64,000 nt of DNA from Escherichia coli (lineage in GTDB: Bacteria; Pseudomonadota; Gammaproteobacteria; Enterobacterales; Enterobacteriaceae). Location of the stretch: NCBI RefSeq assembly GCF_024700885.2, contig NZ_CP117016.1; one strand, written 5' to 3'. Below, piece by piece: positions 6,574-29,371 of the stretch. Position numbers and translations under genes: made by a program. The notes below the pieces were generated by a model that worked only from the letters and a program-made list of their open reading frames with translations, searched no databases and had not been told where the DNA came from. Numbering within the stretch: position 1 is the first letter of the stretch; the number at the start of each line of letters is the position of its first letter.

Positions 6574-7696
6574 CCAGTTTAAGCACCTCTTTGGGAATGG
6601 AAATATGTCTGTTCAGGGCCGGGCGCGGCTGTGCGCCGTCGCGCCAGTGTTTCATTTGCAGGACGTAGGTCAGAACGTGGGCGATGGCCCGGTAAAGCTG
6701 AAACGGAATTTGCTGGTTCACCTGGGTGGTGTAGTAAACCGAGCGCGCCAGCCGCGGGAACTCGACCACTTCCACCTGATTCTCAGCAGCGACCTGACGA
6801 ATATAGAGGGCGATTTCATCGGTGCCTTTCGCCACCACAAACGGCGCGGCGGCGCGCGACTGGTCGTACTGCAACGCTACGGCGTAGTGGGTCGGGTTGG
6901 TGATCACCACGTTGGCTTTTGGCACCACTTTGCGGATTTGCCCCATCGCCAGCTGCCGTTGCAGCCGCCGCACGCGTGCCTTCACTTCCGGCTTGCCTTC
7001 CTGATTTTTGTACTCTTCTTTCAGCTCCTGCTTGGTCATCTTCAGTCCTTTGGTGAACAGGGCTTTCGCCAGCGGCACGTCGATTAACGCAAAGAAGATA
7101 AACAGGATGACAAAGTTGCGCATCACGCTGGCGTAGAGCGATAAACCGTCATTCATCGCCAGTTTGAACGGTAGTGCCTGCAGGCCGAGAAAGGCGGCAA
7201 AGTTATTGCGCAGGCTTACCCACAGCATCACCAGCACCACCACCGACTTCACCGTCATCTTTCCCGTTTCCGCCAGATGTTCGCTGGAAAACAGTCGCCC
7301 AATGCCTTTTAACGGGCTGATTTTGCTGAAATCCGGGAGGATTTTTTTCGGCAGAAACAGCCAGCCGCCGGGCACCAGCGAAGAGAGCAGCGCGGCGGCG
7401 GGCATCGGTAGCAAGGTAAGAATAAACTTGCCGAGAATTAACAGGTGATGGCGCAGAAACTGGCCGAGCACCTGCGGGTTATTAATCTCCTGCGCATACT
7501 GATGCACGCTGATAAAACTCTCGCGTACAAAATCGGCGTACCACGGAAAACTGCTGGAGATCACCACAAACGCCGCAAACAGGCTCGCCGCTAGCCCCAT
7601 ATCCTTCGAGCGCGGCAGTTGCCCCTCTTCACGCGCTTTACGCAGCTTTTGCGCCGAGGGTTTCTCTGTTTTTTCTTCGCTGCTGCTATCCGCCAT
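6557..7696 (-). CDS. lfhB: flagellar export apparatus protein FlhB homologue
   Basis: 379 aa with FlhB-like TM region and the conserved NPTH autocleavage motif (VVITNPTHYAVAL). Confidence 0.9.
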   Translation of the reverse strand: MADSSSEEKTEKPSAQKLRKAREEGQLPRSKDMGLAASLFAAFVVISSSFPWYADFVRESFISVHQYAQEINNPQVLGQFLRHHLLILGKFILTLLPMPAAALLSSLVPGGWLFLPKKILPDFSKISPLKGIGRLFSSEHLAETGKMTVKSVVVLVMLWVSLRNNFAAFLGLQALPFKLAMNDGLSLYASVMRNFVILFIFFALIDVPLAKALFTKGLKMTKQELKEEYKNQEGKPEVKARVRRLQRQLAMGQIRKVVPKANVVITNPTHYAVALQYDQSRAAAPFVVAKGTDEIALYIRQVAAENQVEVVEFPRLARSVYYTTQVNQQIPFQLYRAIAHVLTYVLQMKHWRDGAQPRPALNRHISIPKEVLKLDGENN

Positions 7697-8468
7697 AGTG
7701 ACCTTTCAGCGCGTCGAGTTGCTGCAACACAAAATTCGCCAGATGCAGATAGTGATCCGGCAGGTTGTAGAGCAGGGTGGCGAAGCAGACCAGCCCCGCC
7801 AGCATGTTGATGGGAAAGCCGAGCGAAAAGAGGTTCAGCGGCGGCGCGATGCGGTTGAGCAGGCCAAAGCAGCCCTGCACAATCAGCATGATAAAGGTGG
7901 TCGGCAGCGCCAGCAGCGATGCGGACGCCAGCACCCAGCTAAAGGCCAGTGCGATGGTGCGCAGGGGTTGCGGATGCAGCGCGTTGCCAATCGGCCAGTA
8001 GGTGAAGCCCTTATACAAAACACTCACCAGCAACAGATGCCCGTCCATGGCAAAAAACAGCAGGATTGCGTAGACGTTGATTAACTCCGCCAGCACGGTG
8101 GTCGATGCGCCGCTGCTCGGGTCGTTCATCACCGCCATGCTCATCCCCATATTGAACGAGAGAATTTGCCCGGCCAGTTGCAGCGCCAGAAACAGAAACT
8201 GAAACATCAGCCCGAACAACATGCCCCATAATATTTGCTCCACCGTCAGGATCAGGCTGTTGAGCGATAGCAGGTCGTGGGGAATGGGATGGGGGATCAA
8301 CGGCGTGATGATGATTGCCAGCGCCAGCGACAAAATGATCCGCACACGCACGGTCAGGGCGCTGTTATCCAGCACCGGCACATAGCGCAGAAACGCCATA
8401 ATGCGCACGAAGGGAAACCACAGCCCCATCGCCAGATCCATCAGTTGCGTAACGTCGCTTGTACGCAT
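7686..8468 (-). CDS. lfiR: flagellar export apparatus protein FliR homologue
   Basis: ORF 7686..8519; start trimmed to MRTSDVTQLM so it follows the lfiQ stop; polytopic membrane protein. Confidence 0.8.
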   Translation of the reverse strand: MRTSDVTQLMDLAMGLWFPFVRIMAFLRYVPVLDNSALTVRVRIILSLALAIIITPLIPHPIPHDLLSLNSLILTVEQILWGMLFGLMFQFLFLALQLAGQILSFNMGMSMAVMNDPSSGASTTVLAELINVYAILLFFAMDGHLLLVSVLYKGFTYWPIGNALHPQPLRTIALAFSWVLASASLLALPTTFIMLIVQGCFGLLNRIAPPLNLFSLGFPINMLAGLVCFATLLYNLPDHYLHLANFVLQQLDALKGHYGG

Positions 8469-8469
8469 C

Positions 8470-8742
8470 TTAATGCACCAGCAACGCGGCCTGGGTAAAC
8501 AGATGAATACACAGATCATGCAACTGGATAATCATCCATTTGCCGCACACGCCCAGCACCACCAGCGTGACAATCAGCCTCGGCAAAAAACTCAGGGTCT
8601 GTTCGTTAATCTGCGTCACCGCCTGGAACACGCTCACCAGCAGGCCAACCAGCAGGCTCGGCACTACCAGCACGGAAACCAGCAAAATCACCACTTTTAT
8701 GCCGCTCGCGACAATGTCGGCGGCTACGTCTACGGTCAACAT
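8470..8742 (-). CDS. lfiQ: flagellar export apparatus protein FliQ homologue
   Basis: 90 aa, two TM helices, FliQ-like sequence; tightly packed between lfiP and lfiR. Confidence 0.85.
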   Translation of the reverse strand: MLTVDVAADIVASGIKVVILLVSVLVVPSLLVGLLVSVFQAVTQINEQTLSFLPRLIVTLVVLGVCGKWMIIQLHDLCIHLFTQAALLVH

Positions 8743-8744
8743 AA

Positions 8745-9497
8745 TCAGCCCAGCCCCAGCCCGCGAATGCTGGTGGTGAGCGTACCGATTGTCAGCGACC
8801 AGCCGTCGATCAGCACAAACAGCATCAGTTTAAAGGGCAGCGAAACAATCAGCGGCGACAGCATCATCATCCCCATCGCCATCAATACGCTGGCGACAAT
8901 CAGGTCGATAACCAGAAACGGGATGTAAATCATAAAGCCAATCTGGAAGGCGGTTTTCAGCTCGCTCAACACATAGGCAGGCACCACGATGGAGAGATCC
9001 TGATCGGCGGCATTGCCCTTCGCGCCGCCGATGGTCATGATTTGCGCCATCGCTTTTTTGTCGGTCTGCGCCAGCATAAAGCGTTTGAGCGGCGTCGCGG
9101 CGGTGCTTAATGCATCGGTCAGGGTAATCTGATCGTTTTCGAACGGCACTACCGCGTGGTCGTAAATATTGAGCCAGATAGGGCGCATCACCAGCATAGT
9201 GAGTGAGAGCGCAATACCAATCAAAATGCGGTTTGGCGGCGTTTGTTGCAGCCCCAGCGCCTGGCGCAGCAGCGACAGCACGATAATAAAGCGCGTAAAG
9301 CAGGTCATCATCAGCACCATCGTCGGCAGCAAACCGACGAGGGTCATCAGAATCAGTACCTGAATTTTGACGCTGTACTCCTGAGTGTTGCCGTGGGTGA
9401 CCACGTTAAGCAGCGCAATATCGCCACCCTGGGCTAACGCCAGCGGCGCAAGCGCCAGCAGCCCAAGGCCCAGCGTCAGTTGAGTGCGGCGTTTCAT
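8745..9497 (-). CDS. lfiP: flagellar export apparatus protein FliP homologue
   Basis: 250 aa with signal peptide and FliP-like TM core. Confidence 0.88.
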   Translation of the reverse strand: MKRRTQLTLGLGLLALAPLALAQGGDIALLNVVTHGNTQEYSVKIQVLILMTLVGLLPTMVLMMTCFTRFIIVLSLLRQALGLQQTPPNRILIGIALSLTMLVMRPIWLNIYDHAVVPFENDQITLTDALSTAATPLKRFMLAQTDKKAMAQIMTIGGAKGNAADQDLSIVVPAYVLSELKTAFQIGFMIYIPFLVIDLIVASVLMAMGMMMLSPLIVSLPFKLMLFVLIDGWSLTIGTLTTSIRGLGLG

Positions 9498-9865
9498 GGT
9501 GCCAGGTCGTTGATATCGCGGGTGTTAAACTCCAGCACGCGCAGGCCGTACTTCTCGTTGACCACCACCACTTCTGCTTTGCCCAACAGGATATTGTTTA
9601 CTTTAATATCCAGCGGCTCCCCGGCGAGCTTATCCAGCTCAATCACCGTGTCGTCGTCGATGTTAAGGAGGTCGGCTAACATGATCTCTACTGATGACAC
9701 TTCCAGCGTTAAGGTCACCGGAATGCGTTTTAGCAGCGTCATCGAGTCGGAAAAACGGTCTTCCAGGCGGGTGACCAGCGTTTCAGCGTCGGCAGATTTC
9801 GCGACAGGCGCAACTTCATCGGTGAGGCCAAAATCCCCGGCTAAAATATCTTCTTGCTTACTCAT
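9494..9865 (-). CDS. lfiN: flagellar motor switch protein FliN homologue
   Basis: ORF 9494..9925; start trimmed to MSKQEDIL (123 aa) directly after the lfiM stop; SpoA-like C-terminus. Confidence 0.8.
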   Translation of the reverse strand: MSKQEDILAGDFGLTDEVAPVAKSADAETLVTRLEDRFSDSMTLLKRIPVTLTLEVSSVEIMLADLLNIDDDTVIELDKLAGEPLDIKVNNILLGKAEVVVVNEKYGLRVLEFNTRDINDLAP

Positions 9866-10709
9866 GGCTATTCTCATTTTTGCCCGCCAGCTCCGACAAA
9901 AACAGTTTGTCTTTGTCTTCCACAATCAGGGCGCTAAATAATTCAGATTGCCCAATCGCCACCGGGAACGTTTCTCCCAGCGAGATGGGTAAAATATCCC
10001 CGGCTTTTATCTGCGTGAGATCCGCGACATTCAGCGACAGCTCGGCGATTTTGACGTTCAGGGTCAGCGGCAGAGAGCGGATAATCTCTTTAATCAGGGC
10101 CGGTTTATTAACGGATTTCGCCACCTGCTGCGGTTTACTGTGCTCGCTGTGGCGGATCAGATTCAAAATAAAATCGGTGTGGGCGTCGTCGAGCAAAATA
10201 CGAAAACTGCTCTCTTCATCGCCCGCAAGGGTAAAGGTTAATTGATACGCCCAGTGGGTAATCACCGTGCTGCTATCCAGCTTTAATTTCAGCGCAATAC
10301 CGGAGGTTTGCAGATTAAATATCAGCGTGCAGATATCCAGCGCGAGTCGGTTTTTTAAACGAGTTTCGGTTTTGGTCGGCAGCCCGTTATGCGCTTTCGC
10401 CTCTTCAAGAGAGGACTCCAGACCATAAAAATTGCCCAGCAGCATTAACAATAAGGAGCGATCAATATCAAACGCCAGATGCCCGACCTGGGAAACCATC
10501 AGTTCGGCGTTTTTATTAATAATATCCATTTCGCAGCCAATCTTTTTTAAGGTGATATTGCTGCGATGCTTTTTGAGAAAGTAGCTGCCCAGATGCGAAT
10601 CAATCACGTCAAAATTCCCCGTAAACAGGGTCGGCAGGCGATGGTAGGGGCGTCCGAGCCGATTACCTTCTAATTTAAAGATGCCTGGCGTTTTACTGTA
10701 CTTCAGCAT
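9858..10709 (-). CDS. lfiM: flagellar motor switch protein FliM homologue
   Basis: 283 aa; operon position upstream of lfiN and FliM-like N-terminal region. Confidence 0.78.
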   Translation of the reverse strand: MLKYSKTPGIFKLEGNRLGRPYHRLPTLFTGNFDVIDSHLGSYFLKKHRSNITLKKIGCEMDIINKNAELMVSQVGHLAFDIDRSLLLMLLGNFYGLESSLEEAKAHNGLPTKTETRLKNRLALDICTLIFNLQTSGIALKLKLDSSTVITHWAYQLTFTLAGDEESSFRILLDDAHTDFILNLIRHSEHSKPQQVAKSVNKPALIKEIIRSLPLTLNVKIAELSLNVADLTQIKAGDILPISLGETFPVAIGQSELFSALIVEDKDKLFLSELAGKNENSHE

Positions 10710-10888
10710 GGCTTACTTTCTCTGCTGTAATGGTATGGGTGTTTCTGTGCACGCAAATCCGGCTGTGACACAAGGTGAGGTATTAAATAGAGGGGGAGTG
10801 AAAGGGGCAAATTATTAATAGGATGAAAAAATAATTAATCGATTAATTGCTTAATGGGAGTGATTTTCGCCAATCAGTCTGCGGTCTG

Positions 10889-10928
10889 TCCCCTCGCCCC
10901 ATCCGGGGAGAGGGTTAGGGTGAGGGGG
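10889..10928. repeat. short intergenic palindromic repeat (second copy)
   Basis: ccctcgccccatccggggagagggttagggtgaggg, same architecture as the repeat at 1049-1088. Confidence 0.4.
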
Positions 10929-11081
10929 CATCACAGATGTCCAAATTAACAGTATTAATATCTAACTAATTGTTTACCATCAAATAATATTTTTATTATC
11001 GTTTAATTCGAACTTGTTAATCCCGCCGGTGATACGCTTCAGAACATCCTGTTTTCTGTCGCTACTTATATCGTTCACCCT

Positions 11082-11349
11082 ATGTCTGAACTTATTGCAA
11101 CTGCCGCTTCCAGCATTAACGCTTTTACTCTGGCAAAGCGTGTCGCCGCATTTAACGTGCCGGTGCTCATTCAGGGCGAAACCGGCGCGGGCAAAGAATG
11201 CGTGGCAAAATATATTCACACCGTCGCCTTTGGTGAAAATGATAACGCGCCCTATATCGGCGTGAACTGCGCGGCGATCCCGGAAAACATGCTGGAAGCT
11301 ACATTATTTGGCTACGACAAAGGCGCATTTACCGGCGCAATTGCCAGCG
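11082..11349 (+). pseudogene. lafK: truncated sigma-54-dependent activator (Flag-2 regulator LafK-like), cut by IS1
   Basis: Translation contains the AAA+ Walker A GETGAGKE and sigma-54 activator-like sequence, then runs directly into the IS1 left end at 11350. Confidence 0.7.
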
Positions 11350-11404
11350 GGTGATGCTGCCAACTTACTGATTTAGTGTATGATGGTGTTTTTGAGGTGC
11401 TCCA

Positions 11405-11680
11405 GTGGCTTCTGTTTCTATCAGCTGTCCCTCCTGTTCAGCTACTGACGGGGTGGTGCGTAACGGCAAAAGCACCGCCGGACATCAGCGCTATCTCTGC
11501 TCTCACTGCCGTAAAACATGGCAACTGCAGTTCACTTACACCGCTTCTCAACCCGGTACGCACCAGAAAATCATTGATATGGCCATGAATGGCGTTGGAT
11601 GCCGGGCAACCGCCCGCATTATGGGCGTTGGCCTCAACACGATTTTCCGCCATTTAAAAAACTCAGGCCGCAGTCGGTAA
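11405..11680 (+). CDS. insA: IS1 InsA (transposition repressor)
   Basis: 91 aa [41 protein letters not shown]..., the zinc-finger InsA of IS1. Confidence 0.92.
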
Positions 11681-12102
11681 CCTCGCGCATACAGCCGGGC
11701 AGTGACGTCATCGTCTGCGCGGAAATGGACGAACAGTGGGGATACGTCGGGGCTAAATCGCGCCAGCGCTGGCTGTTTTACGCGTATGACAGGCTCCGGA
11801 AGACGGTTGTTGCGCACGTATTCGGTGAACGCACTATGGCGACGCTGGGGCGTCTTATGAGCCTGCTGTCACCCTTTGACGTGGTGATATGGATGACGGA
11901 TGGCTGGCCGCTGTATGAATCCCGCCTGAAGGGAAAGCTGCACGTAATCAGCAAGCGATATACGCAGCGAATTGAGCGGCATAACCTGAATCTGAGGCAG
12001 CACCTGGCACGGCTGGGACGGAAGTCGCTGTCGTTCTCAAAATCGGTGGAGCTGCATGACAAAGTCATCGGGCATTATCTGAACATAAAACACTATCAAT
12101 AA
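11599..12102 (+). CDS. insB: IS1 InsB reading frame (expressed as InsAB' transposase by -1 frameshift)
   Basis: Frame encodes ...[60 protein letters not shown]..., recognised as IS1 InsB. Confidence 0.88.
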
Positions 12103-12118
12103 GTTGGAGTCATTACCG

Positions 12119-12274
12119 GAATGCCTGACGGAAATGAAATTTGAAGATTTGCGCGGCATGAAAATATCCGCCATCCGCAAACTGATTTCTGATGCGCTAA
12201 AGAAAGATCTTCAGCGTCGCAAAATGAGCGCACCGTATAAGGATTTGCTGGTGAAAAAAGTGGTCTTCCAGTAA
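12119..12274 (+). pseudogene. 3' remnant of a gene truncated by the IS1-associated deletion
   Basis: Open frame immediately after the IS1 right end encodes a C-terminal tail (...KISAIRKLISDALKKDLQRRKMSAPYKDLLVKKVVFQ*) with no upstream start context. Confidence 0.35.
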
Positions 12275-12293
12275 TCACCAGGCGGATATAAAC

Positions 12294-13010
12294 ATGCTAC
12301 AGGACGTATTCGAGTCAGAAGAATTTGCTGCCGCGCCGGTATTAACCCCGCAGCAGGAGAGCCACTACTTGCAGGCCTATTTACCGTTGGTGCGTAAAGT
12401 GGTGCGGCAACTTGCCCCGCAGTGTAATTGCATTATTGATCGTCAGGATATGGAACAAATGGCGTTAATGGGGCTGCTTAATGCCATTCGTCGCTACGGG
12501 CTGCCGGACGAAGGTTTTGCGGGCTATGCCGTGCACCGTATTCGCGGCGCGATCCTGGATGAGCTGCGCGCTCTCGACTGGCGACCGCGCCAGCTGCGAC
12601 AGAAATATCATCAGATGAAAGATCTGATACGCGAAACGCGTAAAAAACTGGGGCACGAACCGGAGTGGTCAGAACTGGCCGTGGAAGGGATTTCGCATGA
12701 AGATTATATCGAATATCAGCAACTGGAAGGGGCGGAAACGCTCGCCAGCCTTGACGAACTGCTGAACGGCGAAGGGCCAGGCATTCCACTTGTTGGCAGG
12801 GAACTGGAAGATCAGTTTGTCACCCAGCAAATGCTGCAATACGCGCTTTCACTATTAAGCGAAAAAGAGCAACTGATCCTCTCCATGTATTACCAGCATG
12901 AGATGAATCTCAAAGAGATTGCGCTGGTATTAGGGCTAACCGAGGCCCGAATTTGTCAACTGAATAAACAGATCGCGCAGAAAATTCGTGATTTTGTCTA
13001 TCCGAATTAA
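12294..13010 (+). CDS. lafS: flagellar sigma factor (FliA/sigma-28 family), Flag-2 system
   Basis: 238 aa with sigma-70 regions 2 and 4 (C-terminal HTH LKEIALVLGLTEARICQL). Confidence 0.85.
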   Translation: MLQDVFESEEFAAAPVLTPQQESHYLQAYLPLVRKVVRQLAPQCNCIIDRQDMEQMALMGLLNAIRRYGLPDEGFAGYAVHRIRGAILDELRALDWRPRQLRQKYHQMKDLIRETRKKLGHEPEWSELAVEGISHEDYIEYQQLEGAETLASLDELLNGEGPGIPLVGRELEDQFVTQQMLQYALSLLSEKEQLILSMYYQHEMNLKEIALVLGLTEARICQLNKQIAQKIRDFVYPN

Positions 13011-13022
13011 AGTGAAGAAATC

Positions 13023-13886
13023 ATGCAAAAAATATTAGGTTTACTGGTGGTGCTCGGCTGCGTATTTGGCGGTTATTTTGAAGCGGGCGGGCAACTAGTG
13101 GCTATCTGGCAACCGGCGGAGATGATCATTATTTTGGGTGCCGGTTTCGGGGCGATGATTATTGGTAATCCGAAACATGTGCTGAAAGAGATTGCTCATC
13201 AAATTAAAGGCGTGATCAGTAAAAAACAGCTCGGGCCGGAGTTTCAGCGTCAGCTATTAATGTGCCTGTATGAGTTGCTCGAAATGGTACAAAACGGCGG
13301 CCTGCGCATGTTGGATCAGCATATTGAGCAGCCGGAAGAGAGCACCGTTTTCCAGAAATACCCGCTGGTGTTAACCCAGAAGCGGCTGGTGACCTTTATT
13401 GCCGATAACTTTCGCCTGATGGCGATGGGCAAAATCGACGCCCACGAACTGGAAGGCATTCTCGATCAGGAGCTGGATACCGCCGAAGAGTCGCTGCTCA
13501 CGCCGTCGCGCTCGCTGCAACGTACCGCCGAAGCGATGCCGGGATTTGGTATTTGCGCGGCGGTGCTGGGCATCATCATCACCATGCAGTCGATTGATGG
13601 ATCTATCGCCCTGATTGGCCTGAAAGTGGCGGCGGCTCTGGTGGGGACGTTTTTAGGCGTCTTTATCTGCTACTGCCTGATGGACCCGCTTGCCAACGCC
13701 ATGGAACAACAGGCGCGGGCGGAACATTCTTTGCTGGAATGTGTGCGTACCGTGCTGGTGGCGCAGGCGGGCGGTAAACCGACGCTGCTGGCGGTAGACG
13801 CCGGGCGTAAGCTGCTGCATCTAGCGTCCAAACCGACCTTCGCCAACCTCGACGCGTGGGTGAATGCGATGCTGGAGCAAGAATAA
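13023..13886 (+). CDS. lafT: flagellar stator protein MotA homologue
   Basis: 287 aa, four TM helices, MotA/TolQ/ExbB family pattern. Confidence 0.88.
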   Translation: MQKILGLLVVLGCVFGGYFEAGGQLVAIWQPAEMIIILGAGFGAMIIGNPKHVLKEIAHQIKGVISKKQLGPEFQRQLLMCLYELLEMVQNGGLRMLDQHIEQPEESTVFQKYPLVLTQKRLVTFIADNFRLMAMGKIDAHELEGILDQELDTAEESLLTPSRSLQRTAEAMPGFGICAAVLGIIITMQSIDGSIALIGLKVAAALVGTFLGVFICYCLMDPLANAMEQQARAEHSLLECVRTVLVAQAGGKPTLLAVDAGRKLLHLASKPTFANLDAWVNAMLEQE

Positions 13887-13888
13887 GC

Positions 13889-14812
13889 ATGAGAAAGACG
13901 GGCAACCGCCGCGAGCGTGGGGCAAAAACCACCATCGTCCGGCGGCAGATCAAAAAGAATCATGCCGGGCATCACGGCGGGGCGTGGAAGGTGGCGTTCG
14001 CCGACTTTACTTTGGCAATGATGGCGCTATTTATGACGCTGTGGATTGTCAACAGCGTCAGTAAATCCGAGCGTGAAAGCATTATCGCCGCGCTGCACGG
14101 GCAGTCGATTTTCAATGGCGGCGGGTTGTCGCCGTTAAATAAAATCAGCCCGTCTCATCCGCCAAAACCTGCCACCGTGGCGGTGCCGGAAGAGACGGAG
14201 AAAAAAGCGCGTGACGTCAATGAGAAAACGGCGCTGCTGAAGAAGAAATCAGCCACTGAGCTTGGCGAGCTGGCGACCAGTATCAACACCATTGCCCGTG
14301 ATGCACATATGGAAGCGAATCTGGAGATGGAGATTGTTCCCCAGGGACTGCGCGTGCTGATTAAAGATGACCAGAACCGCAATATGTTTGAACGCGGCAG
14401 CGCACAGATTATGCCGTTCTTTAAAACTTTGCTGGTGGAGCTCGCGCCAGTGTTCGACTCGCTCGATAACAAAATTATTATTACCGGGCATACCGATGCG
14501 ATGGCCTACAAAAACAATATCTACAACAACTGGAACCTTTCGGGCGATCGCGCGCTTTCGGCTCGTCGGGTGCTGGAAGAGGCCGGAATGCCGGAAGATA
14601 AAGTGATGCAGGTGAGCGCGATGGCGGACCAGATGCTGCTGGACGCGAAAAATCCGCAAAGCGCGGGCAACCGACGCATTGAGATTATGGTGCTGACCAA
14701 AAGTGCGTCCGATACGCTGTATCAATACTTTGGTCAGCATGGGGATAAAGTGGTGCAGCCGCTGGTGCAAAAGCTGGATAAGCAGCAGGTGCATTCGCAG
14801 CGAACGCGCTAG
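13889..14812 (+). CDS. lafU: flagellar stator protein MotB homologue (OmpA-like peptidoglycan-binding domain)
   Basis: ORF 13856..14812; start trimmed to MRKTGNRRE; single TM then OmpA-like C-terminal domain (NRRIEIMVL). Confidence 0.85.
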   Translation: MRKTGNRRERGAKTTIVRRQIKKNHAGHHGGAWKVAFADFTLAMMALFMTLWIVNSVSKSERESIIAALHGQSIFNGGGLSPLNKISPSHPPKPATVAVPEETEKKARDVNEKTALLKKKSATELGELATSINTIARDAHMEANLEMEIVPQGLRVLIKDDQNRNMFERGSAQIMPFFKTLLVELAPVFDSLDNKIIITGHTDAMAYKNNIYNNWNLSGDRALSARRVLEEAGMPEDKVMQVSAMADQMLLDAKNPQSAGNRRIEIMVLTKSASDTLYQYFGQHGDKVVQPLVQKLDKQQVHSQRTR

Positions 14813-14849
14813 ATGCTGAATCTTTACGCATTTCTCAAACCCTGAAATC

Positions 14850-14869
14850 ACTGTATACTTTACCAGTGT
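14850..14869 (+). promoter_or_regulatory. LexA (SOS) box upstream of dinB
   Basis: aCTGTatactttacCAGTgt matches the CTGT-N8-ACAG type LexA operator, about 15 bp upstream of the dinB start. Confidence 0.7.
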
Positions 14870-14882
14870 TGAGAGGTGAGCA

Positions 14883-15938
14883 ATGCGTAAAATCATTCAT
14901 GTGGATATGGACTGCTTTTTCGCAGCGGTGGAGATGCGCGACAATCCCGCCCTGCGCGATATCCCTATTGCTATTGGCGGCAGCCGCGAACGTCGGGGGG
15001 TGATCAGCACCGCCAATTATCCCGCGCGTAAATTTGGCGTACGTAGCGCTATGCCGACAGGGATGGCGCTCAAATTATGCCCACATCTCACCTTGCTTCC
15101 GGGGCGCTTTGACGCCTACAAAGAAGCCTCAAATCATATCCGTGAAATCTTCTCGCGCTACACCTCGCGTATTGAACCGTTGTCACTGGATGAAGCCTAT
15201 CTCGATGTCACTGATAGCGTCCATTGCCACGGTTCTGCGACCCTCATCGCCCAGGAAATCCGCCAGACGATTTTCAGCGAGCTGCAACTGACGGCGTCTG
15301 CGGGCGTGGCACCAGTAAAGTTTCTCGCCAAAATCGCCTCCGACATGAATAAACCCAACGGCCAGTTTGTGATTACGCCGGCAGAAGTTCCGGCATTTTT
15401 ACAAACCTTACCACTGGCAAAAATCCCCGGCGTCGGCAAAGTCTCGGCGGCAAAACTGGAAGCGATGGGGCTGCGGACCTGCGGTGATGTACAAAAGTGT
15501 GATCTGGTGATGCTGCTTAAACGCTTTGGCAAATTTGGCCGCATTTTGTGGGAGCGTAGTCAGGGGATTGACGAACGCGATGTTAACAGCGAACGGTTGC
15601 GAAAATCCGTCGGCGTGGAACGCACGATGGCGGAAGATATTCATCACTGGTCTGAATGTGAAGCGATTATCGAGCGGCTGTATCCGGAACTTGAACGCCG
15701 TCTGGCAAAGGTGAAACCTGATTTACTGATTGCTCGCCAGGGGGTGAAATTAAAGTTTGATGATTTTCAGCAAACCACTCAGGAGCACGTCTGGCCGCGG
15801 CTGAATAAAGCTGATCTAATCGCCACCGCGCGTAAAACCTGGGATGAACGCCGCGGCGGGCGCGGTGTGCGACTGGTGGGGCTGCATGTGACGTTGCTTG
15901 ACCCTCAAATGGAAAGACAACTGGTGCTGGGATTATGA
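14883..15938 (+). CDS. dinB: DNA polymerase IV (Y-family translesion polymerase)
   Basis: 351 aa starting [33 protein letters not shown]. Confidence 0.95.
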
Positions 15939-15989
15939 TGTATACTATTATGTCTATTCTGGTGTGCATTATTATGAGGGGATCACTGT

Positions 15990-16283
15990 ATGCATCGAAT
16001 TCTCGCTGAAAAATCGGTCAATATCACTGAGTTACGTAAAAACCCAGCTAAATACTTTATTGATCAACCGGTTGCGGTTCTTTCTAATAATCGCCCCGCA
16101 GGATATCTCTTAAGTGCCAGCGCATTCGAAGCGTTAATGGACATGCTTGCTGAACAAGAGGAGAAAAAACTGGTTAAGGCGCGCTTCCGTCCGAGTGCCG
16201 CAAGATTAGAGGAAATTACACGCCGCGCTGAACAATATCTTAATGATATGACGGATGATGATTTCAATGACTTTAAGGAATAA
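15990..16283 (+). CDS. yafN: YafN antitoxin (Phd/YefM family)
   Basis: 97 aa; operon position after dinB; Phd/YefM-like N-terminus. Confidence 0.85.
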   Translation: MHRILAEKSVNITELRKNPAKYFIDQPVAVLSNNRPAGYLLSASAFEALMDMLAEQEEKKLVKARFRPSAARLEEITRRAEQYLNDMTDDDFNDFKE

Positions 16284-16285
16284 GG

Positions 16286-16684
16286 ATGCGGGTATTCAAA
16301 ACAAAACTTATTTGCCTGCAACTTACAGCAGAGGAACTTGATGCGTTAACGGCGGATTTTATTTCCTATAAGCGTGACGGTGTTTTGCCAGATATATTTG
16401 GTCGCGATGCACTCTACGACGACTCGTTTACCTGGCCATTAATCAAATTTGAGCGAGTTGCTCATATTCATCTGGCAAATGTGAATAATCCATTTCCGCC
16501 ACAGTTGCGCCAATTCAGCAGAACGAATGACGAAGCGCATTTGGTATATTGTCAGGGTGCGTTTGATGAGCAAGCATGGTTGCTCATTGCCATTCTGAAA
16601 CCTGAACCTCATAAACTGGCTCGAGATAACAACCAAATGCATAAAATTGGGAAAATGGCAGAAGCGTTTCGCATGCGTTTTTGA
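16286..16684 (+). CDS. yafO: YafO toxin (ribosome-dependent mRNA interferase)
   Basis: 132 aa directly after yafN with 2-nt spacing. Confidence 0.85.
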   Translation: MRVFKTKLICLQLTAEELDALTADFISYKRDGVLPDIFGRDALYDDSFTWPLIKFERVAHIHLANVNNPFPPQLRQFSRTNDEAHLVYCQGAFDEQAWLLIAILKPEPHKLARDNNQMHKIGKMAEAFRMRF

Positions 16685-16693
16685 ATTTATATT

Positions 16694-17146
16694 ATGAATA
16701 ACATACAAATAAGAAACTATCAGCCTGGCGATTTTCAGCAACTATGCGCTATTTTCCTTAGAGCGGTTACGATGACCGCCAGTCAGCATTATTCACCACA
16801 ACAAATTGCCGCCTGGGCGCAGATTGACGAATCTCGCTGGAAGGAGAAACTCGCGAAATCACAAGTATGGGTTGCGATCATTAATGCACAACCGGTTGGT
16901 TTTATTTCCCGCATTGAACACTATATCGATATGTTATTTGTTGACCCTGAATACACCCGCCGTGGGGTTGCCAGCGCTTTGTTAAAACCTTTGATTAAGT
17001 CTGAATCCGAACTTACGGTGGACGCAAGCATAACCGCAAAACCCTTTTTTGAACGTTATGGTTTTCAGACAGTTAAGCAGCAGCGCGTTGAATGCAGGGG
17101 AGCGTGGTTTACTAATTTTTCTATGCGATATAAACCGCAACATTAA
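16694..17146 (+). CDS. yafP: GNAT-family N-acetyltransferase
   Basis: 150 aa; last gene of the dinB-yafNOP operon; GNAT motif region (RRGVASALL). Confidence 0.85.
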   Translation: MNNIQIRNYQPGDFQQLCAIFLRAVTMTASQHYSPQQIAAWAQIDESRWKEKLAKSQVWVAIINAQPVGFISRIEHYIDMLFVDPEYTRRGVASALLKPLIKSESELTVDASITAKPFFERYGFQTVKQQRVECRGAWFTNFSMRYKPQH

Positions 17147-17378
17147 ATTCAGCTTGCAATGAAAATAACACCCGCCTGGTATGTGCGCGTTTTCTTATTC
17201 CACAAACTGCAAGGAGGTAAATCATGACAAATCCTTTATCAATGACTCTTTGCAGACCTTTCCAGGATTAATTCTTTTTTCTTGCCCTGGATTCGTCTGC
17301 CATTTCCTGATTTTTATATTTATATACTCTAAATAATTCGAGTCGCAGTACATGCAACTTGAAGTATGACGAGTATAA

Positions 17379-17645
17379 ATGGGATGGTACATGGGCAAAT
17401 CTATTCGTCCCTTATCCGATGCGGTATTTACCATCGCATCTGATGGCCTGTGGATCGAGAGTTTAGCGATCCAACAATTACACACCACGGCAAATTTACC
17501 CAACATGCAGCGCGTAGTAGGGATGCCAGATTTACACCCCGGACGCGGCTACCCGATTGGCGCAGCGTTCTTCTCCGCAGGCCGTTTTTACCCGGCAAGA
17601 CGTCGCGGTAACGGTGCTGGAAACAGAAACGGGCCGCTACTCTGA
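17379..17645 (+). pseudogene. ykfJ: RtcB-like RNA ligase fragment (frameshifted/truncated)
   Basis: Only about 90 aa of RtcB-like N-terminal sequence (...[16 protein letters not shown]), continuing in another frame (17557..17811). Confidence 0.6.
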
Positions 17646-17687
17646 CACGCTGCGTTCGGCGCTGATTTCTCTGGATGGCGATAACGC

Positions 17688-17945
17688 ATGGGCATTAAGC
17701 GAAAGTTGGTGCGGCACTATTCAGTGGATTTGTCCGAGTCCGTATCGGCCTCATCATGGGCGCAAAAACTGGTTTCTGGGCATGCTAACAAGCGGCTGGC
17801 GCGATTGCTGATTGCCTGGAAGCTGGAACAACAGCAACAGGAAAATAGCGCGGCGCTGAAATCGCAGTGGCGAATGTTCCATCATCAAATTGAACGTGGC
17901 AACCCGCGACGGACATTTACAGGGATGGCTTTTATCGAAGGATAA
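17688..17945 (+). pseudogene. prfH: peptide chain release factor homologue fragment
   Basis: 85-aa C-terminal fragment in a third frame, adjacent to the rtcB-like remnant. Confidence 0.55.
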
Positions 17946-18001
17946 TGAAGGATGAAACTGCCGGAAGGCGATTAAACGCCATCCGGCAGCAAATCAAATA
18001 A

Positions 18002-19459
18002 TTACTTCGCCGGAATTTCTTTCAGCAGTTCAGTCAGCAGTGTCCAGTAATGACCAACGCTTTCGATATGAACCTGCTCATCCGGAGAGTGCGGACCGGT
18101 GATGGTTGGCCCGATAGAAACCATGTCCATTTCCGGATACGGTTTTTTAAACAGACCACATTCCAGGCCCGCGTGGATAATCTGGATGTTCGGCGTCTTG
18201 TTGAACAGACGCTGATAGGTTTCACGCACCAGGTGCATCACCGGAGAATTAGCGTCCGGCTGCCAGCCTGGATACGCGCCTTTCGCTTCGGTTTTCGCGC
18301 CAGCCAGTTTACCCAGCGAATCCAGCATGCTCACCACGTAGTCTTTACCGCTGTCGATCAGAGAACGGATCAGGCAGTGAATTTCTACGTTATTGTCAGT
18401 CATGGTCACCACACCGACGTTCAGGGAGGTTTCGACCACACCTTTTGCCACGTCGGAGTTGCGGATCACACCGTTCGGGGTAGCGTTCAGCAGACGAATA
18501 AAGGTATCGCGAGATTTCGCAATCAGGGCAGCTTTATCGTTCGCAACAGAGTCCAGCAGCAATGCCAGATTTTTCTCTTTCTCTGCCAGCTCGTTTTTCA
18601 GGATCTCCTGATAGGTATTCACCAGAGATTTCAGTGCGTCGACTTTATCAGCTGCGACAGCAATCGTCGCAAAGGCTTCACGCGGGATGGCGTTACGCAG
18701 TGTGCCACCGTTGAAATCGATAAGGCGCAGGTCCAGCTCTTCCGCATGACCCGCCAGGAAGCGCACCAGCAGTTTGTTGGCATTACCCAGGCCAACGTGG
18801 ATTTCACCGCCGGAGTGACCGCCTTTCAGGCCTTTTAAGGTTAACTTGAAGGTTTCAAAGCCAGCTGGAACCGCTTCACGATCTAAATGCAGGTTGGAGG
18901 TAAAGTCGATACCCCCCGCGCAACCCATGTAGATTTCACCTTCCTCTTCGGAGTCGGTGTTAATCAGAATATCAGCCTGCAACCAGTTGCTCTGTAAGCC
19001 AAAAGCACCATCCATACCGGCTTCTTCGGTCATGGTCAGCAGCACTTCCAGCGGGCCGTGAACCACGTTTTCGTCAGCCAGAACCGCCAGCGCAGACGCC
19101 ATACCAATGCCGTTATCCGCACCCAGCGTGGTGCCGCGCGCTTTAACCCATTCGCCATCAATATAAGGCTGGATAGGATCTTTAGTGAAGTCATGCACAG
19201 TGTCGTTATTTTTCTGCGGCACCATATCGAGGTGGGCCTGCAAGACGACCGGTTTACGATTTTCCATACCTGCGGTAGCAGGTTTACGAATCAGGATATT
19301 ACCTACCTGATCGCGTTCGACATGGAAACCTTTCTCTTTTGCCCAACCAACAATGTATTCAGCGAGTTGCTCTTCATGATAGGACGGGTGAGGAATAGAA
19401 CAGATTTTGGCAAAAATATCCCACAGCGGCTGTGGAGATAATTGAGACAGTTCAGACAC
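18002..19459 (-). CDS. pepD: cytosolic non-specific dipeptidase (aminoacyl-histidine dipeptidase)
   Basis: 485 aa M20-family peptidase starting MSELSQLSPQPLWDIFAKICSIPHPSYHEE. Confidence 0.95.
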   Translation of the reverse strand: MSELSQLSPQPLWDIFAKICSIPHPSYHEEQLAEYIVGWAKEKGFHVERDQVGNILIRKPATAGMENRKPVVLQAHLDMVPQKNNDTVHDFTKDPIQPYIDGEWVKARGTTLGADNGIGMASALAVLADENVVHGPLEVLLTMTEEAGMDGAFGLQSNWLQADILINTDSEEEGEIYMGCAGGIDFTSNLHLDREAVPAGFETFKLTLKGLKGGHSGGEIHVGLGNANKLLVRFLAGHAEELDLRLIDFNGGTLRNAIPREAFATIAVAADKVDALKSLVNTYQEILKNELAEKEKNLALLLDSVANDKAALIAKSRDTFIRLLNATPNGVIRNSDVAKGVVETSLNVGVVTMTDNNVEIHCLIRSLIDSGKDYVVSMLDSLGKLAGAKTEAKGAYPGWQPDANSPVMHLVRETYQRLFNKTPNIQIIHAGLECGLFKKPYPEMDMVSIGPTITGPHSPDEQVHIESVGHYWTLLTELLKEIPAK

Positions 19460-19719
19460 GTTAAGTCTCCTTGTCGATCACCCGCAAAACAGTATTGCAG
19501 GTCACAGGGTTAGCAGAAAATGTTGTCAACACAAGACAGGCTTGCGAGATATGTTTGAGAATACCACTTTATCCCGCGTCAGGGAGAGGCAGTGCGTAAA
19601 AAGACGCGGACTCATGTGAAATACTGGTTTTTAGTGCGCCAGATCTCTATAATCTCGCGCAACCTATTTTCCCCTCGAACACTTTTTAAGCCGTAGATAA
19701 ACAGGCTGGGACACTTCAC

Positions 19720-20178
19720 ATGAGCGAAAAATACATCGTCACCTGGGACATGTTGCAGATCCATGCACGTAAACTCGCAAGCCGACTGATGCCTTCTGAA
19801 CAATGGAAAGGCATTATTGCCGTAAGCCGTGGCGGTCTGGTACCGGGTGCGTTACTGGCGCGTGAACTGGGTATTCGTCATGTCGATACCGTTTGTATTT
19901 CCAGCTACGATCACGACAACCAGCGCGAGCTTAAAGTGCTGAAACGTGCAGAAGGCGATGGCGAAGGCTTCATCGTTATTGATGACCTGGTGGATACCGG
20001 TGGTACTGCGGTTGCGATTCGTGAAATGTATCCAAAAGCGCACTTTGTCACCATCTTCGCAAAACCGGCCGGTCGCCCGCTGGTTGATGATTATGTTGTT
20101 GATATCCCGCAAGATACCTGGATCGAACAGCCGTGGGATATGGGCGTCGTATTCGTCCCGCCAATCTCCGGTCGCTAA
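19720..20178 (+). CDS. gpt: xanthine-guanine phosphoribosyltransferase
   Basis: 152 aa starting [23 protein letters not shown] with PRTase motif [11 protein letters not shown]. Confidence 0.95.
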
Positions 20179-25837: not shown

Positions 25838-25913
25838 GCCGATATAGCTCAGTTGGTAGAGCAGCGCATTCGTAATGCGAAGGTCGTAGGTTCGACTCCT
25901 ATTATCGGCACCA
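25838..25913 (+). tRNA. thrW: tRNA-Thr (anticodon CGU)
   Basis: GCCGATATAGCTCAGTTGGTAGAGCAGCGCATTCGTAATGCGAAGGTCGTAGGTTCGACTCCTATTATCGGCACCA; cloverleaf with CGT anticodon; integration site for the downstream island. Confidence 0.95.
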
Positions 25914-26077
25914 TCACCTAGTTTTCCCAAGTCAACCCACATCAACAAAATCATTTAAAAACATATATATTACGTTGTTTTCATACGTTTGAGGTCAACC
26001 CTTGTCTCTTGAAATCAACACGCGGTTGGGGGCACAATCAGGGGCATGTTCTGTTCGGTCTAGGAAATGTGCCCCCA

Positions 26078-27268
26078 ATGATGCTGAATGCCCGCAAGGT
26101 TGAAGCTGCGAAAGGAAAAGAGAAGAGCTACAAGCTGTTTGATGGAGGTGGCCTATATCTTCAGGTCGAACCTAATGGCTCGCGTTACTGGCGTATGAAA
26201 TACCGTTTTGCTGGTAAAGAGAAACGATTGTCCTTTGGTGTTTATCCAACAGTCACACTTGCTGATGCCAGACAAAAACGAGAAGACGCGAAGAAACTAC
26301 TCGCAGCAGGTGAAGATCCCGGCGAAGTCAAAAAAGCCAAAAAGCAGGCTTTAAATGCAGCGATTGAGACACTTAACCCATTCAGAGAAGTGGCGTTAGA
26401 GTGGCACAAAATGAAATCACCCAAATGGTCTGAGGGCTATGCTTCCGACATCATTGAGGCATTCGAGAAAGACATTTTCCCGCATATTGGGCACAGACCT
26501 ATAGCTGATATTCAGCCCCTTGAACTGCTTGAAGTTCTGAGATTGATAGAAGCTCGAGGCGCTATGGAGAAAGCGAAGAAAGTCCGTCAGCGATGCGGTG
26601 AAGTTTTTCGCTATGCCATCGTAACGGGTAGGGCAATCTACAATCCGGCACCGGATCTTGCCAGTGCGATGCAAGGACATGAAGCAGTCCACTATCCATT
26701 CCTCAAAGCCAACGAACTACCGGAGTTCTTTAATGCCCTTAATTCTTATTCAGGAAGTCCAATTGTATTGTTGGGGGCGCATTTACTTATCCTGACAGGT
26801 CTACGAACTGGAGAACTACGAGCAGGTGAGTGGCGAGAGGTGGATTTTGATAATGCGGTGTGGGAGATCCCAAAAGAACGTATGAAAATGCGTAGGAGCC
26901 ATATTGTCCCGTTGTCAAAACAAGCATTATCCCATCTCAAAAGTTTGAAAGAACTAACTGGGAACTACCCGCTGATGTTCCCTGGACGCAACGATCCTAG
27001 CAAATTTATGAGTGAAGCAAGCATTAATCAGGTGTTTAAACGTATTGGATATGCAGGGCGTGTTACGGGGCATGGTTTCAGGCATACGATGAGTACAATC
27101 CTACATGAGAAAGGATTTAACAGCGCTTGGATTGAAACCCAGCTTGCTCATTCGGACAAAAACTCTATTCGTGGAATTTATAACCATGCCCAATATCTCG
27201 AAGGGAGAAGAGAAATGATGCAATGGTATGCTAATTATTTATCTGAGCTAATTGGTACTCATAAATGA
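26078..27268 (+). CDS. P4-type tyrosine integrase (tRNA-targeting)
   Basis: ORF 26009..27268; likely start at MMLNARK; C-terminal catalytic region with HGFRHT and conserved Tyr (RGIYNHAQYLEGRREMMQWY); directly beside thrW. Confidence 0.85.
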   Translation: MMLNARKVEAAKGKEKSYKLFDGGGLYLQVEPNGSRYWRMKYRFAGKEKRLSFGVYPTVTLADARQKREDAKKLLAAGEDPGEVKKAKKQALNAAIETLNPFREVALEWHKMKSPKWSEGYASDIIEAFEKDIFPHIGHRPIADIQPLELLEVLRLIEARGAMEKAKKVRQRCGEVFRYAIVTGRAIYNPAPDLASAMQGHEAVHYPFLKANELPEFFNALNSYSGSPIVLLGAHLLILTGLRTGELRAGEWREVDFDNAVWEIPKERMKMRRSHIVPLSKQALSHLKSLKELTGNYPLMFPGRNDPSKFMSEASINQVFKRIGYAGRVTGHGFRHTMSTILHEKGFNSAWIETQLAHSDKNSIRGIYNHAQYLEGRREMMQWYANYLSELIGTHK

Positions 27269-28089
27269 ATATTTTAAAAATTAATAATACTGATTCTCTG
27301 CTCAGAGATTACTACCAGTTGGATGAAGCTTCAGAAAAAATTGGTTGTAGTGAAAAGGATATACTCTGGTTTGCCAGAGAACGAGATGTAGAGCTATGCA
27401 TGGAATTCCATGATGATGAGTATGATGTTTCATGTGGTTTGAAGATTGATGGTCAAATGGATGAGTTCTTATCTAATCTGAAATATTTACCACGAGATAG
27501 AAATGGCAATATTATGTTGTCAGACTTAAGTTCTATAAGAATCCCTGATGAAGATAATTTAATTGATAAAAATGGTTTTATTCGATGTTTCATATCCGGT
27601 TTATGGGCTGTTGATTATGAATATAAAGATCTGTTAGTTAAGCATGAGGGGCAACCGGATTCCTGGCCTATTCATTTTCTACTGGCGGGTACGCCTAATA
27701 TAAATTGTAAGGTAATTCTTTATGTAAATTATGATGAAAAAGAAAATTATTATCTTTTTGAGGTTTTGTGGATTACAAAGGTACAGATTCAAAAATTCAT
27801 TGATATAGTCTTATGCGAACAAAAGCGGATAAAAAACGCCAATAAATATAAATCACAATCTGAGGCGCAAAAACAAAAACATGCTGTTCCTCGAGCTGAA
27901 ATACTCATGGCTATTATTTCGCTCTATCATCGTGATATGAGGCTAAGAAGAGAGAGTCCAGCAGCGATAGCTGATTATCTTTTTCAACATGCCAGTGAGT
28001 TCTGGCCTAAGACCGGAGAACCGCCTTTGAGCTATGATACTGTTGTTAGTTTGCTACGTAGTTGCATGAAAAACACTAAGTTTAACTAA
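27265..28089 (+). CDS. hypothetical protein (AT-rich island cargo, translationally coupled to integrase)
   Basis: 274-aa ORF whose ATG overlaps the integrase stop (ATGA); strongly AT-rich compared with flanking DNA; no recognisable motif. Confidence 0.55.
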   Translation: MNILKINNTDSLLRDYYQLDEASEKIGCSEKDILWFARERDVELCMEFHDDEYDVSCGLKIDGQMDEFLSNLKYLPRDRNGNIMLSDLSSIRIPDEDNLIDKNGFIRCFISGLWAVDYEYKDLLVKHEGQPDSWPIHFLLAGTPNINCKVILYVNYDEKENYYLFEVLWITKVQIQKFIDIVLCEQKRIKNANKYKSQSEAQKQKHAVPRAEILMAIISLYHRDMRLRRESPAAIADYLFQHASEFWPKTGEPPLSYDTVVSLLRSCMKNTKFN

Positions 28090-28214
28090 ATATTAACAAT
28101 TATTGTGGCTAATGATTTTGGATTTTTTTCATTAGTCACATTTTTCTCATTTATAACCTATGTTTTAATTTTCCGTGTTGAAGCCAATAGACTTAGATAA
28201 ACGGAGAATGATGA

Positions 28215-28421
28215 ATGTTATCTAAACATGATAATACTACTTTGCAACGACCTTCAATGGATTCTCTGATCGATATGAAGTTTATTACTTCCGATTGTTT
28301 ATTAAGTGATAAATGGATTTATCGATTGATTTCTCTGAATCGCTTTCCAAAACCTATAAAAATAGGTCGGATGTCACGATGGCGCGCTGCTGATTATTAT
28401 AAGTGGCGAGATGGGTTTTAA
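28215..28421 (+). CDS. alpA: AlpA/Vis-family phage transcriptional regulator (excisionase-like)
   Basis: 68 aa with the AlpA-like core ...RLISLNRFPKPIKIGRMSRWRAADYYKWRD. Confidence 0.7.
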   Translation: MLSKHDNTTLQRPSMDSLIDMKFITSDCLLSDKWIYRLISLNRFPKPIKIGRMSRWRAADYYKWRDGF

Positions 28422-28537
28422 GAAAACTCAGGTCAACATTTTGAGGGAATGAGAAATAAGGCAAGAGCAATTAATAAAGGGAATAGATTATCACCTACTC
28501 CCTAAGCCTTAATTGATAGTTAGTAATATTTAACTGA

Positions 28538-28711
28538 TTAGCCTTTAGGGTCAATCCCGCGTGATTGGAGTTCTTTGCGTAAAATTCTTTTAATCCAAGT
28601 TGCCAACGCGCTATCTCCATCTTTGCGCATTTCGTTTTCGAGTTGCAACCTAAAATCGTCGGTAAGACGCATTTGGAATGGTGGAGAACGTTTCTCTTGT
28701 GGTGTTGACAT
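28538..28711 (-). CDS. small Arc/MetJ-type (ribbon-helix-helix) DNA-binding protein, putative island repressor
   Basis: 57-aa minus-strand ORF (MSTPQEKRSPPFQMRLTDDFRLQLENEMRKDGDSALATWIKRILRKELQSRGIDPKG); below the ORF-track size cut-off; start codon overlaps the operator region. Confidence 0.45.
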   Translation of the reverse strand: MSTPQEKRSPPFQMRLTDDFRLQLENEMRKDGDSALATWIKRILRKELQSRGIDPKG

Positions 28712-28751
28712 GGTAATTACCCTAGAATATGATGACTACATGGTAATTACC
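28705..28751 (+). promoter_or_regulatory. sigma-70-like promoter (TTGACA-17-TATGAT) with two copies of the palindromic operator GGTAATTACC
   Basis: TTGACA at 28705-28710, 17-bp spacer, TATGAT at 28728-28733; catGGTAATTACC occurs at 28709-28721 and 28739-28751, 30 bp apart. Confidence 0.45.
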
Positions 28752-28842
28752 ATTGTAAGTATAGTTCGCTTGTAAAAGCAATGCCCGATTGTGCGGGAAC
28801 ACAAATCGGGCATTTAACCAACCGTTATAAGAGGTAACGAAG

Positions 28843-29019
28843 ATGGCTAAACAGAAGTGTACTTGGTTATTTGCGGCGATCAACCGCAGTCAACGCAATG
28901 CCCGTCCTGTGATGTTAAGGATCACCGCAGATAACGAGCGGTCAGCGCGGCGCAGACTTGCCCCGGACTATGTACTGAGCTTTGCCGGGCGCATTCCCTG
29001 CGGAGGTGAACATGCGTAA
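28843..29019 (+). CDS. small hypothetical protein (58 aa), first ORF of the rightward early transcript
   Basis: ATG with GAGG 8 nt upstream; MAKQKCTWLFAAINRSQRNARPVMLRITADNERSARRRLAPDYVLSFAGRIPCGGEHA; not in the ORF track (<60 aa). Confidence 0.3.
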   Translation: MAKQKCTWLFAAINRSQRNARPVMLRITADNERSARRRLAPDYVLSFAGRIPCGGEHA

Positions 29020-29371
29020 TTATCCGCACCCCGGCGAACGCTGGCAGCATGAACGTGGCTGGACGGTCACGATTATCCGATTAATAGAAGCATCGCCCTC
29101 TGTGGCACTGGTTAATCCTGAATTCAGCTGTGAAGTGCTGATACGTCATGACAGCGACAACCAGCTTTCTTCCTGCCCTCTGGCATGGTTTGAACAGCGG
29201 TATACGCGCCTGTTTGATGTACCGCTCTTTAAGCCTGCACCAGCTCCTGCAGGCGGTAGTGGTTCCGGCCCGCTGACACTGCATCCGTCTGTGCTATTTA
29301 TCCGCTGGCGGGAGCGTAGCATATGGCGTTCTGCTGAGCCTGACGACGGTCACTATTCAAAGTTTCTCTGA
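29012..29371 (+). CDS. hypothetical protein (island early region)
   Basis: ORF 28982..29371; ATG at 29012 with GGAGG 8 nt upstream; 119 aa, no recognisable motif. Confidence 0.4.
   Translation: MRNYPHPGERWQHERGWTVTIIRLIEASPSVALVNPEFSCEVLIRHDSDNQLSSCPLAWFEQRYTRLFDVPLFKPAPAPAGGSGSGPLTLHPSVLFIRWRERSIWRSAEPDDGHYSKFL

Follow-up and report, generated by a model that had tools for sequence, protein, structure and literature searches.

We analyzed a 64-kb stretch of an E. coli chromosome (the window) in which yafP and pepD flank pieces of the genes encoding RtcB2, the PrfH-coupled RNA ligase, and PrfH, a release factor homologue. Translation and alignment to intact loci identified three operon pieces in two frames, with two junctions, at positions 17379-17945. 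The gene order around the remnant is lafU, dinB, yafN, yafO, yafP, remnant, pepD, gpt, frsA, and the yafNO toxin-antitoxin pair (15990-16684) adjoins dinB. The initial annotation had outlined this interval correctly, as position 17379 is the ATG of an open reading frame (ORF) and 17943-17945 is the stop codon of the prfH remnant. The features of the locus, other than those of the leader described below, are as follows.

16694-17146: yafP
17321-17377: short repeat, which we take to be ERIC-like, between the leader and the rtcB2 start
17379-17645, plus strand: ykfJ-type ORF of 88 codons, opening at an in-frame ATG upstream of the RtcB2 start
17391-17597, plus strand: RtcB2 N-terminal fragment, residues 1-69 of 379
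17589-17597: deletion junction 1, where one copy of an imperfect 9-bp direct repeat survives (TACCCGGCA)
17593-17784, plus strand: PrfH residues 32-95, read in the +1 frame with respect to the RtcB2 fragment
17780-17783: deletion junction 2, GCAT microhomology of 4 bp
17781-17945, plus strand: PrfH C-terminal fragment, residues 151-202 with two further codons and the stop, in the frame of the RtcB2 fragment
17958-17989: palindrome CTGCCGGAAGGCG-ATTAAA-CGCCATCCGGCAG, presumably REP-like, between the prfH remnant and the end of pepD
18002-19459, minus strand: pepD, convergent with the prfH remnant

Fragments of RtcB2 and PrfH

The intact references were M18 (rtcB2 of 379 aa and prfH of 204 aa, with overlapping stop and start codons), EcPF15 and Escherichia sp. 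E1V33. Further comparison loci were taken from Klebsiella, Citrobacter and Salmonella, and both multiple and pairwise alignments were made. The initial annotation had proposed that the region is what an internal deletion left of an ancestral RtcB-PrfH pair, and had named alignment to intact loci of the Enterobacteriaceae as the check. That alignment confirms a remnant of an ancestral rtcB2-prfH pair.

The first fragment descends from rtcB2, as it occupies the same locus directly upstream of prfH and is identical to intact RtcB2 at 65 of 69 residues, with four amino-acid changes. NCBIfam model NF007153 matches it at model positions 1-69 of 379 only (E=3e-30), and TIGR03073 ('release factor H-coupled RtcB') likewise matches at positions 1-69. 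The NF007153 score of 105 bits falls below the cut-off of 407, compared with 643 bits for the intact M18 protein. Residues 70-379 are deleted, and with them the ligase core and the catalytic histidine H294, so the fragment does not qualify as an RtcB2 ligase. The 88-codon ORF that contains the fragment continues out of frame into prfH DNA, and its length equals that of ykfJ (b0235) in K-12 MG1655.

The two remaining fragments both derive from prfH. The middle fragment is identical to intact PrfH at 63 of 64 residues and matches TIGR03072 (PrfH) at positions 31-93 (E=4e-26, 91.8 bits). The C-terminal fragment is identical at 50 of 52 residues and matches the same model at positions 150-200 (E=9e-15, 54.8 bits). 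Neither reaches the TIGR03072 cut-off of 166.65 (model length 200) that a full-length member would. The GGQ peptidyl-tRNA hydrolysis motif (residues 120-122, including Q122) lies inside a 169-bp deletion, and the pieces therefore do not amount to a PrfH release factor. The 3' end is conserved, as intact prfH of Escherichia sp. E1V33 ends in IEG and a stop, as does the prfH remnant in the window.

Scores under the NF007153, TIGR03073 and TIGR03072 cut-offs arise because the pieces are fragments. With Pfam, the RtcB match to the first fragment was sub-threshold and no match was obtained for the two PrfH fragments. In total, 82% of RtcB2 and 43% of PrfH are missing from the window. The initial annotation had described an RtcB-like fragment running through two frames, followed by a release-factor-like C-terminal fragment. 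The latter is present as PrfH residues 151-202, but a second PrfH piece had been missed. RtcB2 residues 1-69 lie in one frame, and what had been read as RtcB in a second frame is PrfH residues 32-95. The remnant occupies two frames because the second deletion lies inside prfH and not inside the RtcB fragment.

Deletion junctions and their distribution

The internal deletion suggested earlier is real, but there are two, one of 1027 bp and one of 169 bp. In intact EcPF15 the direct repeat pair TACCCGGCA...TACCCGACA (9 bp, matching at 8 of 9 positions) brackets the segment missing at junction 1. The flanking sequences there are ...CGTTTTTACCCGGCActgg on the left and ...gaagcTACCCGACAagacg on the right, where the window has CGTTTTTACCCGGCAAGACG. 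The 1027 bp lost at this junction encode RtcB2 residues 70-379 and PrfH residues 1-31. This first deletion joined rtcB2 codon 69 out of frame to prfH codon 32. The junction (...CGTTTTTACCCGGCAAGACG...) is identical in the window, K-12 and PT109, which identifies the allele as K-12-type. It is the '~1000 nucleotide deletion' described in K-12 and O157:H7 by Baranov et al. 2006 (PMC1586002).

At junction 2, K-12 and M18 read CTGGGCATTGG...GTCAGCATGCT and the window reads CTGGGCATGCT. The 169 bp lost encode PrfH residues 96-150, including the GGQ at 120-122, and the frame shifts at this point because 169 is not a multiple of three. K-12 does not carry the second deletion, and its prfH part runs unbroken from residue 32 to the stop codon, unlike that of the window. 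Replication slippage or illegitimate recombination between short direct repeats is the probable origin of both deletions.

The direction of change is that of loss. The order dinB-yafP-rtcB2-prfH-pepD is found in Escherichia, Klebsiella, Citrobacter and an Enterobacteriaceae metagenome-assembled genome (MAG), and dinB-rtcB2-prfH-pepD is found in Salmonella, Kosakonia and Cronobacter. Since the intact operon occupies the same locus in other genera, the remnant was derived from it by loss.

The spacer between the prfH remnant and pepD contains the palindrome at 17958-17989, which is presumably REP-like by comparison with the E. coli REP consensus. The palindrome is the same in the intact locus of Escherichia sp. 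E1V33 and similar in Citrobacter. In M18 and EcPF15, 882 bp separate prfH from pepD and comprise a YdjM-family membrane protein gene and a 93-residue ORF (positions 5000-5807 of locus L004 and 6056-6863 of locus L003), both absent from window 17938-17998. A third deletion of 882 bp in the window was considered and is ruled out, as prfH adjoins pepD in intact E1V33, Citrobacter, Klebsiella and the MAG. Given this arrangement in E1V33 and other genera, alignment identifies the YdjM-family gene and the small ORF as an insertion in some Escherichia lineages that replaced the REP-like hairpin. By the same comparison the REP-like spacer reads as the ancestral type and not as a deletion scar.

Each state was counted in 5426 complete E. 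coli genomes. Of these, 2677 retain the operon's central part, as judged by a match to 80% or more of the 981 bp lost at junction 1, and 2672 are of the junction-1 type, with both remnant halves adjacent. The junction-1 deletion is thus common to K-12 and about half of E. coli. A 50-mer across junction 2, built so that undeleted genomes cannot seed a match, was found in 659 genomes (~12%). The carriers of junction 2 that were looked at closely (the window/MLI114, PT109 and Br_112_kylling) also carry junction 1, and the double-deletion allele is a derived sub-allele of the K-12 type (659/5426). The complete genomes are consequently split into approximately 49% intact, 37% single-deletion and 12% double-deletion alleles.

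The short repeat at 17321-17377, presumably ERIC-like from its resemblance to the ERIC consensus, varies among the loci. K-12 and PT109 have 72 extra internal bases in this repeat, at 17342/17343, and EcPF15, Klebsiella and Citrobacter are without the element. Additional ERIC-like copies were seen elsewhere in genomes. All four combinations of the 72 bases and the 169-bp deletion, present or absent, exist among strains, with K-12, PT109, the window and YJ6-like strains as examples. The match in YJ6 spans 1021 bp (852 + 169), consistent with neither the ERIC extra bases nor the second deletion. The existence of all four combinations indicates local recombination or recurrent events within ~450 bp.

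Two strains have the same remnant sequence. Strain 1190 is 100% identical to window 17150-18001, and MLI114 is 100% identical to window 9000-20000. The records of both strains carry PGAP pseudogene annotations at the positions corresponding to window 17391-17597 ('RNA ligase RtcB family protein', incomplete) and 17593-17945 (prfH, 'frameshifted; incomplete; missing N-terminus').

We noted several further features elsewhere in the window. An IS1B element at ~11405-12102 is flanked by truncated genes for a sigma-54 regulator and a FliL-family protein (window ~11082-12274), where an IS1-associated deletion has removed the middle of the Flag-2 lateral flagellar cluster. This deletion sets window 1-12117 apart from strain 1190, and among complete genomes only MLI114 matches the full 11-kb stretch across it at 100% identity. 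Between yafL and the Flag-2 flhA-like gene, a hicA/hicB toxin-antitoxin pair lies at ~3748-4375 on the minus strand. Integrated at tRNA-Thr (25838-25913) is a P4-like satellite or island (25838-37900) with genes for an integrase, an Icd-like protein and a TOPRIM/DUF927 primase as well as psu and ogr/delta-like genes. Part of its cargo is a retron, with an Rfam msr match at 35296-35365 and ORFs for a St85-family effector (35530-36498) and a reverse transcriptase (36485-37417). An Rfam match to the IS009 RNA family (190.7 bits) was found at 48558-48758 near yagU/ykgJ. Finally, a repeat of ~120 bp with ~91% identity is present at 38746-38868 and 58034-58156. One copy is at ykgR, its counterpart at a partial ykgR copy close to the thrW island edge, and the repeat may mark a past recombination boundary.

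A conserved leader upstream of rtcB2

The region between yafP and the RtcB2 fragment contains a short upstream ORF (uORF) and a putative structured RNA leader, preceded by a promoter-like site.

17154-17182, plus strand: promoter-like site, TTGCAA-17 nt-TGGTAT, conserved by position only
17207-17393, plus strand: leader RNA with three mutually exclusive predicted helices (RNAalifold consensus)
17207-17216 with 17246-17255: helix H1, in which the Shine-Dalgarno region CUGCAAGGAG pairs with CUCUUUGCAG inside the uORF
17211-17218: perfect Shine-Dalgarno sequence of the uORF, AAGGAGGT
17224-17271, plus strand: candidate leader peptide, a 15-codon uORF (MTNPLSMTLCRPFQD followed by a stop), intact in the window
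17252-17266 with 17286-17300: helix H2, in which GCAGAC...CCAGG pairs with CCUGG...GUCUGC
17294-17307 with 17381-17393: helix H3, in which CGUCUGCCAUUUCC pairs with GGAAUGGUAYAUG, the rtcB2 ribosome-binding site and AUG

Each of the 13 taxa examined, a set that spans Escherichia to Pseudomonas, has an ORF of 13-15 codons with a GGAG-type Shine-Dalgarno sequence at this position upstream of rtcB2-prfH. It has 15 codons in Escherichia, Klebsiella, Citrobacter, the MAG, Salmonella, Kosakonia, Cronobacter, Limnobaculum, Leminorella and Proteus, 14 in Providencia and 13 in Pseudomonas sp. YH-1. The N-terminal half of the peptide is variable, and the conserved part corresponds to the RNA element CUUUGC(A/G)G(A/G)C.

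The three predicted helices compete for the same nucleotides. GCAG is common to H1 and H2, and GUCUGC to H2 and H3, so that each of these pairs is mutually exclusive. H3 includes the pairing CCAUUUCC/GGAAUGG. The z-score of the leader fold is -2.9. Mean duplex energies are -13.9 kcal/mol for H1 and -15.0 kcal/mol for H2, compared with -7.8 and -7.3 kcal/mol for shuffled sequences, and both helices are far more stable than shuffles in nearly all taxa. The mean for H3 (-13.7 kcal/mol against -10.2 shuffled) is only marginally better than that of shuffles.

The outer stem of H2 shows compensatory changes. It is GCAGAC:GUCUGC in E. coli, GCAGGC:GCCUGC in Limnobaculum, Leminorella and Pseudomonas, GCGGAC:GUCCGC in Proteus and GCGGGC:GCCCGC in Providencia. 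As these changes turn an arginine of the peptide into glycine, it appears from the alignment that the RNA pairing, rather than the peptide, is under constraint in the uORF.

The -10-like hexamer of the promoter-like site is TGGTAT in the three remnant alleles compared (window, K-12 and PT109) and TAGTAT, TACTAT or TAATAT in intact loci, a comparison of only 3 remnant and about 15 intact sequences. The change from A to G at position 2 is a suggestion of promoter decay in the remnant alleles. A sigma-70 consensus scan called no promoter upstream of the remnant, nor at the homologous site of an intact locus. Because the scan misses the site in the intact locus too, it cannot be used as an argument for promoter loss.

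No Rfam family matches the remnant region, and we found no account of an E. coli rtcB2 leader or its uORF peptide in the searchable literature. A related arrangement has been described in Pseudomonas aeruginosa, where ribosome stalling on the leader peptide PA5471.1 governs the homologous armZ-PA5470 operon (PMC12057347, PMC13041342). In that system armZ is RtcB-like and PA5470 is prfH, and, as in E. coli, a short uORF with a strong Shine-Dalgarno sequence lies upstream together with alternative RNA pairings. The 13-codon uORF of Pseudomonas sp. YH-1 has the ...LCR core and the CUUUGCAG element in common with that of E. coli. The leader also resembles erm-type and trp-type attenuation. The uORF leader probably corresponds, in enterobacteria, to PA5471.1 of P. 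aeruginosa. However, PA5471.1 is described as acting by transcription attenuation with terminators, whereas the Enterobacterales leader has a third helix over the rtcB2 ribosome-binding site and AUG and no following U-run, which suggests translational control.

This arrangement can be drawn as a switch. In intact strains, H3 would hide the rtcB2 ribosome-binding site as long as no stalling takes place. Early stalling on the uORF would free GCAGAC to pair with GUCUGC (H2), H3 would open, and the repair genes would be turned on. Ribosomes damaged by colicin E3 have been reported to stall at start codons (PMC13166195). We consider the chances to be about even that the leader of intact strains works by such stall-switched helices and that the window retains the intact leader-peptide sensor as an orphan before dead genes.

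Comparison with known loci and function of the remnant

PrfH recognizes ribosomes that have been cut in the 16S rRNA between A1493 and G1494 and frees the nascent peptide by means of its GGQ motif. RtcB2 then ligates the rRNA cut, which is made by colicin E3 or CdiA-CT, and RtcB2 H294N and PrfH Q122E served as inactive controls (PMC9304027). E. coli ATCC25922, with an intact operon, resists colicin E3, but BW25113, which carries the K-12 remnant, is sensitive. The truncated operon of BW25113 is non-functional and knockouts of the remnant had no colicin E3 phenotype (PMC9223846).

The locus in the window is orthologous to the intact RtcB2-PrfH module of ATCC25922 and CFT073 (PMC9223846, PMC9304027), with 93-98% identity in the retained segments and the leader region and genomic position in common. 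However, with 82% of RtcB2 and 43% of PrfH gone it cannot work likewise, as the catalytic residues H294 and Q122 both lie within the missing segments. From their absence we infer that the locus is inactive and the strain without RtcB2-PrfH defence. The remnant should yield no active protein, and the strain should be unable to repair damage of the colicin E3 type. Some transcript or peptide could still be made, as the 88-codon chimeric ORF and the leader are intact.

The closest known relatives are the ykfJ (b0235) and prfH (b0236) pseudogenes of K-12 MG1655. They share with the window the locus between yafP and pepD, the 1027-bp junction, the length of the 88-codon chimeric ORF, the 3' end and the REP-like spacer. 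The window differs from K-12 in its extra 169-bp deletion, the absence of the 72 internal ERIC bases and a sequence difference of ~2.5%. The remnant is thus a further-decayed form of the K-12 pseudogenes, and as such it is ordinary, previously known and annotated. The leader is the only potentially novel lead at this locus.

The broken frames could in principle be errors of sequencing or assembly that conceal an intact locus. This is extremely improbable, as the missing stretches are of 1027 and 169 bp and are not single-base indels. An intact single reading frame, which the initial annotation expected of resequencing if there were no remnant, is contradicted by independently assembled complete genomes, of which 659, produced by many laboratories, share the identical 169-bp junction and 2672 have the 1027-bp type. 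Release factor 2 genes, such as prfB, use a +1 programmed frameshift, and as PrfH is a release factor homologue the frame change in prfH could be read in the same manner, with functional PrfH still being made. We give this no more credence than an assembly error. The change of frame coincides with the loss of 169 bp encoding residues 96-150, including the GGQ motif, and the N-terminal 31 residues and start codon of PrfH are also gone. Furthermore, intact prfH is a single uninterrupted ORF in at least 15 loci.

A third possibility is that the remnant has been re-used, with the 88-residue chimeric ORF or the leader transcript having a function of its own and being kept in half of E. coli for that reason. 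The ORF at 17379-17645 has the same length as K-12 ykfJ, the uORF and helices are unchanged, and the remnant persists in 2672 genomes. However, the conserved -10-like hexamer has lost its A at position 2 in the remnant alleles, and the lineage of the window has accumulated four amino-acid changes in 69 RtcB2 codons and later lost another 169 bp. The K-12 remnant knockouts were without a colicin E3 phenotype (PMC9223846), and neutral DNA of ~550 bp is expected to persist. We therefore regard re-use as very unlikely, if somewhat less so than the other two alternatives.

The fragment identities, the junctions, the direction of change as loss and the population frequencies were established in this analysis. 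Together with the comparison to intact loci, they make it nearly certain that what survives here of the enterobacterial rtcB2-prfH operon is a non-functional pseudogene remnant, decayed by two deletions. The allele places the strain with K-12 and about half of E. coli among those without this defence against ribotoxins that attack the decoding centre, such as colicin E3 and CdiA-CT. The three allele states (intact, single deletion and double deletion) are useful for predicting colicin sensitivity and for strain typing. If the proposed function of the leader is correct, it would explain how an operon for ribosome repair senses ribosome damage.
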